A DNA stretch of 64,000 bases. Origin: Ignavibacteriota bacterium (lineage in GTDB: Bacteria; Bacteroidota; Ignavibacteria; UBA10030). The stretch covers positions 1,280,001 through 1,344,000 of the forward strand of contig OY969585.1 in the NCBI GenBank assembly GCA_963701295.1. The letters run 5' to 3'. A program made the position numbers and the translations under genes. The notes under the pieces are model-generated. The model was given only the letters and a program-made list of their open reading frames with translations, was not told the DNA's origin and did no database searches. Below are positions 1-64,000 of the stretch, piece by piece. Each line of letters opens with the position of its first letter. Position 1 is the first letter of the stretch.

Positions 1-392
1 CAAGATCAATAGCCAGATATCCAATCCATTGAGATTCTTACGCAATGTATCAAAGGTGAGCTTATAATTTGCAGTGACGAGAACATCTGAAAAATCATTT
101 GGTGTGCCAACGGCATATAATCCGGGGGCGACTCGGTAACGATCTCGGCGAATTCCCCAGCGGACTCTGAAAGCACCAAGGTAATCTCTTATGTCCAATT
201 GTGATGAAATGCGTGGAATCATTCCTGCCGGTGTTTGAATTTCATCCAAGATATAACGCCCTTTTTTTTTAAATTGAAGATGGTTTTACTCTCTGCGATT
301 TGGCAGCCACAATTATCAGCCGGAATTTTCAACTGGAGAGATACCAATTCCTCGGAATTCTCGCAACCGCATGGCTGATTTGAATATCCCAT
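1..392 (-). CDS. hgcA: HgcA-like mercury-methylation corrinoid protein, 5' part (runs off the window edge; -1 frame break at A9 run 262-270)
   Basis: Manual translation of the minus strand, 261 to 1: GRYILDEIQTPAGMIPRISSQLDIRDYLGAFRVRWGIRRDRYRVAPGLYAVGTPNDFSDVLVTANYKLTFDTLRKNLNGLDIWLLIL. This matches the HgcA segment preceding the cap-helix motif N(V/I)WCA(A/G)GK, which would lie just outside the window. ATG at 392 is 3 nt after the arsC stop but in another frame. Confidence 0.82.
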
Positions 393-3005: not shown

Positions 3006-3023
3006 TATCGCAATATTACGATA
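3006..3023. promoter_or_regulatory. Putative ArsR operator, copy upstream of arsM
   Basis: Near-perfect 18-bp palindrome TATCGCAATATTACGATA; 16/18 identical to the copy at 3371-3388. Confidence 0.7.
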
Positions 3024-3041: not shown

Positions 3042-3362
3042 TCAACAACACGATTTCACGTTATTCAGAAACTGAGCAAGAATCTGTTTTGCTTCCTGCC
3101 ATGCTTTTTTATTAATGCAGTAACACACCTTCGGTCCTTCAATCTCGCCTTTGATTAGACCGATACGTTTCAATTCAGCAAGATGTTGTGATACAGTCGC
3201 CTGAGACAGGGGGAGTTCTTCCACAATGTCGCCGCAAACACAAGCATTTTGTTTAGCTAGGAATTCTAGAATTGCAATTCGTGCCGGATGTGCAAAAGCT
3301 TTCCCGAGATCCGCGAGGCGATTCTGACTGTTGCTAAAAACTTCTTTCTTTGATGTTCCCAT
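3042..3362 (-). CDS. arsR: ArsR/SmtB metalloregulator
   Basis: KAFAHPARIAIL, CVCGD metal box, LSQATVSQHL helix-turn-helix, C-terminal CC; true start taken as ATG 3362 (MGTSKK). Confidence 0.93.
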   Translation of the reverse strand: MGTSKKEVFSNSQNRLADLGKAFAHPARIAILEFLAKQNACVCGDIVEELPLSQATVSQHLAELKRIGLIKGEIEGPKVCYCINKKAWQEAKQILAQFLNNVKSCC

Positions 3363-3370
3363 AATTCTTA

Positions 3371-3388
3371 TATCGTAATAATACGATA
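3371..3388. promoter_or_regulatory. Putative ArsR operator, copy upstream of arsR
   Basis: TATCGTA-ATAA-TACGATA 7-4-7 palindrome 8 nt upstream of the arsR ATG. Confidence 0.7.
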
Positions 3389-3455
3389 GAAGTTTCACAA
3401 AAACAAGAAAAAAATGAGATGATGCCTTTATACGCGGGAAAATGGGTCGTTCTGT

Positions 3456-3502
3456 AAAAAAACTTCTGGCTTTCCGAAGAAAAAACCTAAAACTGGAAAG
3501 CC
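3456..3502 (-). terminator. Possible intrinsic terminator after ftsZ
   Basis: 8-bp stem GGCTTTCC/GGAAAGCC with a long 19-nt loop; T7 run 5 nt downstream on the minus strand; atypical geometry. Confidence 0.35.
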
Positions 3503-3589
3503 GCAAATGCGTGAGTCATCCCTCATTCCCACCGTGCAAGGAGAGAAGAGAAAGTACATCACTTCTATCAATATGAAATAGCCGCCCGA

Positions 3590-4821: not shown

Positions 4822-6060
4822 TTACAGTTCGTCAAACCACGATTTCATTTTCTGGAAGATCGTTCTACCTTTTCCGTCTTGAATGACTGCTTTTACACCG
4901 GAACGATCACGATGCTTTAATTCATGCATCACTAATCCGACGCCTGTGGCGTAAATTGGATTCTCGATTTCTCGAACGAGGCCAGAGCTGAATCCGCCTG
5001 GAATTCCAATCTTTACTGGCATTCCGAGTACCTCCTTTGCAAGATCAGCAGTTCCTTTAATAAGTGAGCCGCCACCGGTGAGCACAACACCTGCTGAAAG
5101 ATGCTTAGAATACCCGGAACGTTTGATCTCCATCGCAGCAAATTCTAAAATTTCTTCCATCCGTGGCTGAATAACTTTGCAGAGTAAATGTTTGTCGATT
5201 TCGAGCGGTGCGCGTCCGCCAATACCGGGAATTTGAATCGGCTGGTTATCCACGATTGCAGGCTCGTACGTGAAGCCATAATCCACTTTGATTTTCTCGG
5301 CTTGATCTGTGAGGATGCCAAATCCTTTACGAATATCGTCCGTTACTTTTCTGCCGGCAATACCAATGACAGCTGTATGACGAATAGTTCGTTCCTCGAA
5401 CACGGCGAGATCCGTTGTGCCACCGCCGATATCGAGAAGCGCCACGCCCACTTCTTTTTCTTCATCATCCAAAACTGCATAACTCGATGCAAGTGGTTCG
5501 AGCACCATATCGTTGACATGCAAACCGGCGCGTTGGACGCATTTGTAAATGTTTTGCGCTGCCGTAACTAGTCCGGTGATGATATGAACAATCGCTTCCA
5601 TGCGGACACCGGACATTCCGACAGGATCGTAAATGCTATCCTGTCCATCGACAATGAATTGCTGGGGAATGACATGAATAATTCTTCGGTCAAGCGGAAG
5701 TGCGACACGTTTTGTATCCTCAATAAGCCGATCAACATCTTCCTGCGTAATTTCATTTTCCGGCCTGCTGATACTGATGACTCCGCGGCTTTGAAAACTC
5801 TGAATGTGGTCGCCAGCGATACCGACTGTCACAGAACTAATTTTTACACCGGATTGCTGTTCAGCATCCTGGACAGCCGATTGAATGGAACGAACAGTTT
5901 TTTCAATGTTTGTCACCACACCACGGGTCAATCCTTCAGATGTGCTCTTGCCAATGCCAAGTATTTTCAGTTTCCCGGGATAATTGTCATCTGGTGATGC
6001 AACAATTGCACATACTTTTGTGGTACCAATATCTAATCCAACTGCTATATCCTGCTCCAT
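4822..6060 (-). CDS. ftsA: Cell division protein FtsA
   Basis: [17 protein letters not shown] and LTGGGS actin-like motifs; position in dcw. Confidence 0.98.
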
Positions 6061-63721: not shown

Positions 63722-64000
63722 ATGCAGAAACCTAAGCATTTAAGAATAAATCATTTCATAATCATCATATTAGCAAGTGTGTTACTTCCTTGTCTCGTTT
63801 CTGGGCAGACCGTGGATGATTGTCTTGCATGTCATTCAGACAATACGTTGACGATAGAGAAGAAGGGAAAAACAATTTCCCTGTTTGCGGATCAATCGAT
63901 ATTAAAAAAATCATCCCATGCAAAACTTATCTGCATTGCCTGCCATGTTAGTTTCGATGCCGGCAATGTTCCCCACAAAGAGAAGATCGATCCGGTCAAT
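63722..64000 (+). CDS. Exported multiheme cytochrome c, 5' part (runs off the window edge)
   Basis: Manual translation MQKPKHLRINHFIIIILASVLLPCLVSGQTVDDCLACHSDNTLTIEKKGKTISLFADQSILKKSSHAKLICIACHVSFDAGNVPHKEKIDPVN: signal peptide plus two CxxCH motifs. Confidence 0.88.
   Translation, partial: MQKPKHLRINHFIIIILASVLLPCLVSGQTVDDCLACHSDNTLTIEKKGKTISLFADQSILKKSSHAKLICIACHVSFDAGNVPHKEKIDPVN

Follow-up and report, generated by a model that had tools for sequence, protein, structure and literature searches.

The window analysed here, a stretch of 64,000 nucleotides (positions 1280001–1344000 of contig C1 of G000, a 3.64 Mb single-contig genome that is 99.3% complete), carries at positions 1–392 the 5′ end of hgcA, a genuine copy of the gene, which together with hgcB likely methylates mercury as part of a likely arsenic-responsive operon. 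The hgcAB pair marks microbes that convert inorganic mercury to methylmercury, which accumulates in food webs. Because the pair is genuine by its sequence, the uncultured anaerobe is likely a methylmercury producer; a first-pass annotation of the same DNA had named it a candidate mercury methylator, a proposal supported by the membership of both genes in the hgcA and hgcB families.

That annotation had placed hgcA at the left edge of the window, hidden from the ORF track, in a minus-strand frame taken to be open across 1–392. HgcA model score, cap helix, membrane helices and a separate hgcB all agree with the gene assignment, and each refuting condition named in the annotation was checked with none of them holding. 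Neither the frameshift nor the arsenic operon had been noticed there. The frame needs correction: the quoted peptide, RVRWGIRRDRYRVAPGLYAVGTPNDFSDVLVTANYKLTFDTLRKNLNGLDIWLLIL, is real and terminates on the minus strand at window position 1, but its frame reaches no further upstream than 285, and the ATG at 392 lies outside it. The ORF track did miss the gene, which appears there (1..249, “3open”) only once open-ended frames are included. With coordinates of zero or below denoting positions left of the window (genome position minus 1,280,000), the body of hgcA occupies 1–285 (minus strand) in the window, has a TAA directly upstream of 285 and continues leftward to a stop at −764 (G000:C1:1279236), 349 codons in total.

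This 349-codon frame scores 419.2 bits on the NCBIfam HgcA model NF040863 (cut-off 275), with residues 23–346 covering positions 1–322 of the 325 in the model, and chance is excluded because the E value is 1e-125. The motif of the cap helix, N(V/I)WC(A/S)(A/G/S)GK, with its cobalt-binding Cys, is present at −15 to −38 (1279985–1279962) as NVWCSAGK rather than in the N(V/I)WCA(A/G)GK form that had been expected left of position 1. Among 80 related hgcA loci, NVWCSAGK is found in 8 and NVWCAAGK in 72; the former is one of the six high-stringency motifs in the available text of Capo et al. (PMC10087281). In an AlphaFold model built from ATG 222 with 73 aligned sequences (mean pLDDT 88.7), the motif is helical and the C-terminal domain consists of five long helices, a predicted membrane domain where the annotation had looked for one; four of the five exceed a Kyte–Doolittle mean of 1.6 in a hydropathy scan. 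The top fold match of the model is PDB 9a0b, titled as a computational model of HgcAB, with CFeSP structures next.

The partner gene, which the annotation had proposed to look for downstream, is a separate hgcB starting 13 nt after hgcA (−778 to −1083, minus strand; 1279222–1278917). It encodes a 101-aa 2[4Fe-4S] ferredoxin that ends in CCN and contains CMECGA as well as two CxxCxxCxxxCP motifs, and it scores 104.4 bits on the HgcB model NF040864, a margin of only 5 bits over the cut-off of 99. NVWCSAGK and C(M/I)ECGA share one contig, the combination named in the high-stringency rules of Capo et al., and the 101-aa ferredoxin agrees with the high-stringency rule for hgcB. Reading-frame integrity aside, every feature that can be tested from sequence is in keeping with membership in the HgcA and HgcB families.

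There is a negligible chance that the gene encodes a non-methylating paralogue, either CdhE/AcsC or a fused HgcAB-like protein. The product has the CdhD/AcsC corrinoid domain PF03599 in common with these proteins, and its PDB matches by sequence are CFeSP chains only (three CFeSP sequences). However, in the scoring comparison that the first-pass annotation had suggested, the HgcA model outscores both the fused HgcAB-like model NF043039 (184.6 bits, cut-off 285) and the AcsC model NF003195 (66.5 bits, cut-off 306), which refutes this reading, and the protein nests amid the HgcA rows of our tree, distant from the AcsC and fused outgroups. AcsC/CdhE, a protein of some 445 residues that has N-terminal Fe-S and TIM-barrel domains, was rejected as the match is limited to residues 50–173; the fused form was rejected for its score below cut-off and for the stop codon and 13-nt gap that separate hgcA from the ferredoxin gene. 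A selenoprotein HgcA was likewise rejected, there being no in-frame TGA in the N-terminal extension and no selA found in the 99.3% complete genome; the PCUGP motif is absent in all 18 listed related loci that have an upstream in-frame TGA.

The reading frame is interrupted close to the start of hgcA. ATG 392 opens a frame of 57 codons that ends in a TGA at 221–219 and differs from the frame of the hgcA body. Its 5′ segment (260–392, minus strand), out of frame with the body, encodes an N-terminal extension, about 44 codons long, that is rich in Cys and contains two CGC motifs, and is 68% identical to codons 1–47 of HgcA from the relative G010. The break lies at 259–270 (minus strand), where the coding strand reads A9 then G3, 2 nt longer than in relatives and with an A-AAA-AAG heptamer in frame. 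In most relatives hgcA starts 3 nt past the arsC stop, equivalent to the position of ATG 392, and has an intact frame of 383–388 codons. In 10 of the 11 same-genus hgcA loci the extension is in frame with the body; among these ten, one carries ATA where the start would be and another differs at its N-terminus. In the eleventh, an NN gap falls within the extension. Eight sequencing runs were compared at the break, their contigs all coming from other strains or species: one contig from an unrelated run (X2, about 87% alike) crosses the break without the extra 2 nt, and the remaining seven runs have no listed piece bridging it. None of the runs shares half of the words of the stretch, and no RNA runs are listed; the eight runs carry no information on habitat.

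The two extra bases at 259–270 are, in our judgement, probably an assembly error, and the cell would then make an HgcA of about 385 residues from ATG 392. We compared 360 kb of G010 with this genome (244 ORFs of at least 150 codons, 221 with an orthologue). Eighteen of the 221 were flagged, and nine proved to be true frame-breaking indels in G000, in hgcA and eight other genes; those affected include miaB, gltA (citrate synthase), a waaA-like (Kdo transferase-like) gene and the cytochrome c maturation genes ccmF-like and ccsB-like. The other nine flagged ORFs were discarded because we placed their stops ahead of the true start, at the end, or within spurious ORFs. The comparison in the opposite direction flagged 12 of 200 ORFs of G000, four of them by frame: two of these breaks belong to G000 itself, a third falls upstream of the true start and the fourth is ambiguous, which leaves 0–1 of the 200 genes frameshifted in the relative. 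About 4% of the tested genes (9/221) are frameshifted, and findings of broken genes in G000 need caution.

Four of the eight non-hgcA indels are single-base indels beside GTAC, against 1.9% expected (P 9e-6, with the motif chosen post hoc), which indicates a systematic base-calling error. Systematic base-calling errors at methylated motifs occur in nanopore data, and we infer that nanopore was the sequencing platform; the pattern may hint at a GTAC-methylating enzyme. According to the available text of one study, homopolymer indels cause frameshifts in nanopore assemblies, and R10.4 resolves most runs shorter than 11 while runs of at least 10 stay difficult (PMC9262707). A true run of ten at the hgcA site would fit these limits. 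Against an assembly error, the hgcA site has no GTAC, its type of indel is not the commonest in this assembly, and a frame-breaking indel is present in only 1 of the 112 other A/T runs of at least 7 within aligned coding DNA. Frameshifts present in assemblies of this kind can truncate or hide hgcA in surveys, as in G000 and in one of the 80 related loci (L029). In L029, the hgcA of another genome, one extra base after GTAC breaks the frame upstream of the cap helix (4900–5000).

Were the frameshift real, HgcA could still be made as a form of 328–337 residues without the Cys-rich extension, through a restart at ATG 222 after the 57-codon leader or a start at TTG 249, an outcome that we regard as unlikely. 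ATG 222 overlaps the TGA of the leader (ATGA) and would by itself still yield the whole HgcA core, the HgcA model begins right after Met 222, and in 49 of the 80 related loci the open frame is too short for a 40-residue extension; a working short HgcA would therefore be plausible if the break is real. The active HgcA purified from Pseudodesulfovibrio mercurii, at 37 kDa, would also fit the short form and not the extended form, given as 363–400 residues in the available text of Haft and Gwadz (10.1101/2022.07.06.499078). Yet there is no Shine–Dalgarno match at ATG 222 (−1.7 kcal/mol, compared with −3.7 at TTG 249), a feature also lacking at ATG 392, and many other frameshifts occur in the same assembly. 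The ATG-ATT codons of the overlap are common to intact relatives, and the overlap is therefore not an adaptation.

It is very unlikely that the frameshift marks hgcA as a recent pseudogene and that mercury methylation has been lost in this strain. The gene may be dispensable, since no match to hgcA turned up in 4 of the 15 same-genus genomes, and homopolymer errors are rare elsewhere in the assembly; but neither hgcA nor hgcB has a second lesion, the catalytic core keeps its own in-frame start, and identity to the nearest relatives is 87–88%, with a short terminal branch (0.062). We find it hardly credible that a recoding switch restores some full-length HgcA, by −1 ribosomal frameshifting at A-AAA-AAG or by polymerase slippage in A9. 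Both sequences are known slippery sites in bacteria (dnaX), the heptamer lies in the leader frame, and a −1 shift leads from there into the body frame. However, the site is not conserved, as the A run of the nearest relatives is interrupted by T without a shift, and only weak hairpins (−4.7 to −7.6 kcal/mol per 50 nt) follow it. A real break combined with slippage-only full-length HgcA or restarted short HgcA would amount to a translational or phase-variable methylation switch atop arsenic control via two ArsR operators, which seems to us highly improbable; a literature search covering titles and abstract openings found no description of a frameshift- or pseudogene-based hgcA switch.

Whichever way the break arose, hgcA and hgcB are the sixth and seventh of eight co-oriented genes, arsR-arsM-arsN2-nitroreductase-arsC-hgcA-hgcB-acr3, with gaps from arsR to acr3 of 58, −4, 10, 20, 3, 13 and 35 nt, flanked by ftsZ upstream and by a convergent flavin reductase gene at the far end. 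On the minus strand these genes are arsR, an ArsR/SmtB metalloregulator with a mid-protein CVC and a C-terminal CC (3042–3362; NF033788, 72.8 bits, cut-off 55); arsM, an arsenite methyltransferase (2174–2983; NF008823, 344 bits, cut-off 263); the N-acetyltransferase gene arsN2 (1740–2177; NF040501, 130.2 bits, cut-off 125); a gene for a TM1586-like nitroreductase-family protein (851–1729; PF14512, PF00881); an arsC-like arsenate reductase gene of the LMWP fold (396–830), assigned by fold and context as its 127.8 bits on TIGR02691 fall below the cut-off of 174.3; and, beyond hgcAB, acr3 (−1119 to −2168; 1278881–1277832; TIGR00832, 452 bits, cut-off 283). The run therefore has the make-up of an ArsR-regulated ars operon, in which arsR, arsC and an arsenite pump are co-oriented and closely spaced, with arsC under its equivalog cut-off. 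Across the 80 related hgcA loci, in which at most 6 kb of flank was considered and short contigs were scored as misses, hgcB was counted in 77, arsC in 54, arsR in 52, acr3 in 47 and arsM in 7.

An 18-bp palindrome, a predicted ArsR operator, has two copies in the window and none in 100 shuffles. The first (3371–3388) precedes arsR and the second, TATCGTAATATTGCGATA (3006–3023), lies about 22 nt ahead of the arsM start; both are found at equivalent places in all seven close loci with the ftsZ-arsR arrangement. A promoter is predicted on the minus strand at 3371–3406, with TTGTTT at 3406–3401, a 17-nt spacer and TATTAT at 3383–3378, so that its −10 box falls inside the first palindrome and the operator is predicted to cover it. 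Here and in the seven close loci the pattern is TTG(T/C)TT, then 17 nt, then TA(T/A)TAT inside the first palindrome. This promoter was read by eye from conservation and was not listed by the consensus scanner; the promoter and terminator scan gave counts at chance level (14 vs. 14.4; 5 vs. 4.6). A loose palindrome pattern had 39 hits genome-wide, too unspecific to define a regulon. In the available text of Gionfriddo et al. (bioRxiv 10.1101/2022.10.17.512643), Cys32 and Cys34 are enough for arsenic binding in the ArsR of E. coli R773. Two further ArsR-family genes 3.5–4.3 kb left of the window count against the regulation assigned to this ArsR.

Beyond acr3 (L001, 3055–5814) lie two divergent ArsR-family genes together with genes for a SAM methyltransferase, a flavin reductase and a 201-aa Met-rich protein whose TsoA-like match is weak. 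Between ftsZ and arsR, at about 3500–3550, an element GCACGGTG.GAAT.A.GGA with an inverted repeat after it is conserved across the seven close loci and is possibly a small RNA or a terminator.

Work on P. mercurii HgcAB describes a membrane-anchored HgcA that binds cobalamin via the cap-helix Cys, with electrons from the two [4Fe-4S] clusters of HgcB, and a methyl group that passes from SAM to cobalamin and on to Hg(II). By analogy, the same chemistry would operate in this host, with a cobamide that the cell would import and not synthesise. The hgcAB genes would share a single transcript with the ars genes, and ArsR would be bound at the palindromes at 3371–3388 and 3006–3023 and released by As(III); hgcAB would thereby be induced along with arsM, arsN2, arsC and acr3. 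The operon offers a testable mercury–arsenic link, with a named repressor and a predicted 18-bp site. In strain ND132, the ArsR-like regulator of hgcAB is arsenic-responsive and an hgcAB deletion is more arsenate-sensitive, according to the available text of Gionfriddo et al. (bioRxiv 10.1101/2022.10.17.512643). Halomethanes are proposed as potential original HgcAB substrates in the accessible part of a 2026 preprint (10.64898/2026.04.26.720869).

With HgcA and HgcB of P. mercurii ND132 (Zheng et al. 2024, PMC11588087) the proteins share a corrinoid domain with the cap-helix Cys and five predicted membrane helices, and a separate ferredoxin that ends in CC and has one more conserved Cys besides its two CxxCxxCxxxCP motifs. 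They differ in the motif NVWCSAGK and in an N-terminal extension that has CGC pairs and no Cys-Sec dipeptide, selA not being found; the Cys-Sec (PCUGP) of the N-terminus in the selenoprotein HgcA of Haft and Gwadz, as given in the available text, is likewise absent. The ND132 hgcAB pair is adjoined only by an ArsR2 regulator, with no other ars genes in the account accessible to us, whereas here the pair lies within an ars operon. Fused HgcAB-like proteins (NF043039) and AcsC/CdhE (NF003195) share the homologous corrinoid-binding domain, but both models score under cut-off, there is no fused ferredoxin, and an AcsC gene was not found.

Further parallels are the hgcAB loci of Bacteroidetes/Ignavibacteria metagenome-assembled genomes. 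In the text available, McDaniel et al. (2020, PMC7438021) report that Bacteroidetes/Ignavibacteria carry hgcA and that acr3, arsC, arsM and arsR flank hgcAB, with Ignavibacteria among the groups that transcribe hgcA in deep fen peat, and Gionfriddo et al. count Ignavibacteriae among genomes with ArsR adjoining hgcAB. The present locus shares this lineage and these flanking genes; compared with the loci described in the accessible parts of these papers, it adds arsN2, the nitroreductase gene and two defined operator-like palindromes, and its ArsR is of the CVC type and not a four-Cys ArsR2. The main text of Gionfriddo et al., as far as it was available, does not mention a palindrome or operator, and our literature search found no paper combining UBA10030 with hgcA. 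These sources have already published both hgcAB from Ignavibacteria and its placement among ars genes, and their supplements may already list the genus or the operon. The locus adds little beyond a single-contig genome, an operator-like site that could be defined, and a warning regarding frameshifts.

The host had been described as Bacteroidota/Ignavibacteria-like, which is borne out by the nearest hgcA loci (65–88% identity), titled Ignavibacteriae, Ignavibacteriota or Bacteroidota/Bacteroidetes bacterium; ftsZ, where included in these loci, is 91–98% identical. Together with them this HgcA forms one clade with SH-aLRT 100 in a quick tree of 82 rows, which omits L029 for its broken frame. A match to hgcA above cut-off occurs in 11 of 15 other same-genus genomes, so that the single-contig genome is one more carrier in a genus with 12 of 16; among 40 sampled relatives 14 have a match, one of which is a fused HgcAB-like protein.

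The description of the host as fermentative stands in part. An [FeFe] hydrogenase is present and neither dsrA nor a heme-copper oxidase was found in G000, but cytochrome bd and a multiheme cytochrome cluster speak against a purely fermentative reading. The dsrA miss is weaker evidence because no control genome passed that cut-off either; the search for MerB had no match in any control genome either and is hence uninformative, and NrfA matched only below cut-off. The genome also has metK, three B12-binding domains and a MetH-sized B12-binding protein, and selA, COX1 (heme-copper oxidase), cobS and AcsC were not found in this 99.3% complete sequence, the AcsC search matching only hgcA and a 1186-aa MetH-sized protein. 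A cobalamin riboswitch precedes a gene for a TonB-dependent receptor, followed by one for a DUF6580 protein (2,018,270–2,021,146; L131, L133), a locus that likely serves B12 uptake. This inventory of hydrogenase, cytochrome and cobS genes suggests a host that is likely a fermenting anaerobe, may also respire via cytochromes and imports its cobamide.

From window position 63722 past the right edge (1,343,722–1,356,173; L132), lies a candidate route for extracellular electron transfer: a cluster that encodes seven multiheme cytochromes with 4–14 CxxCH each, along with cytochrome b, a Rieske protein and a 437-aa protein lacking any Pfam match, and that includes genes for cytochrome c maturation. 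In the same family, G019 (L018) has AcsC, AcsD-like and activator-like genes alongside hgcA, unlike G000. Genome G034 (L016, 84–1922) carries a 613-codon frame for a fused HgcAB-like protein of three parts, which unites a SAM methyltransferase with an HgcA-like domain (motif NVWCASAGG), with membrane helices and with a ferredoxin.
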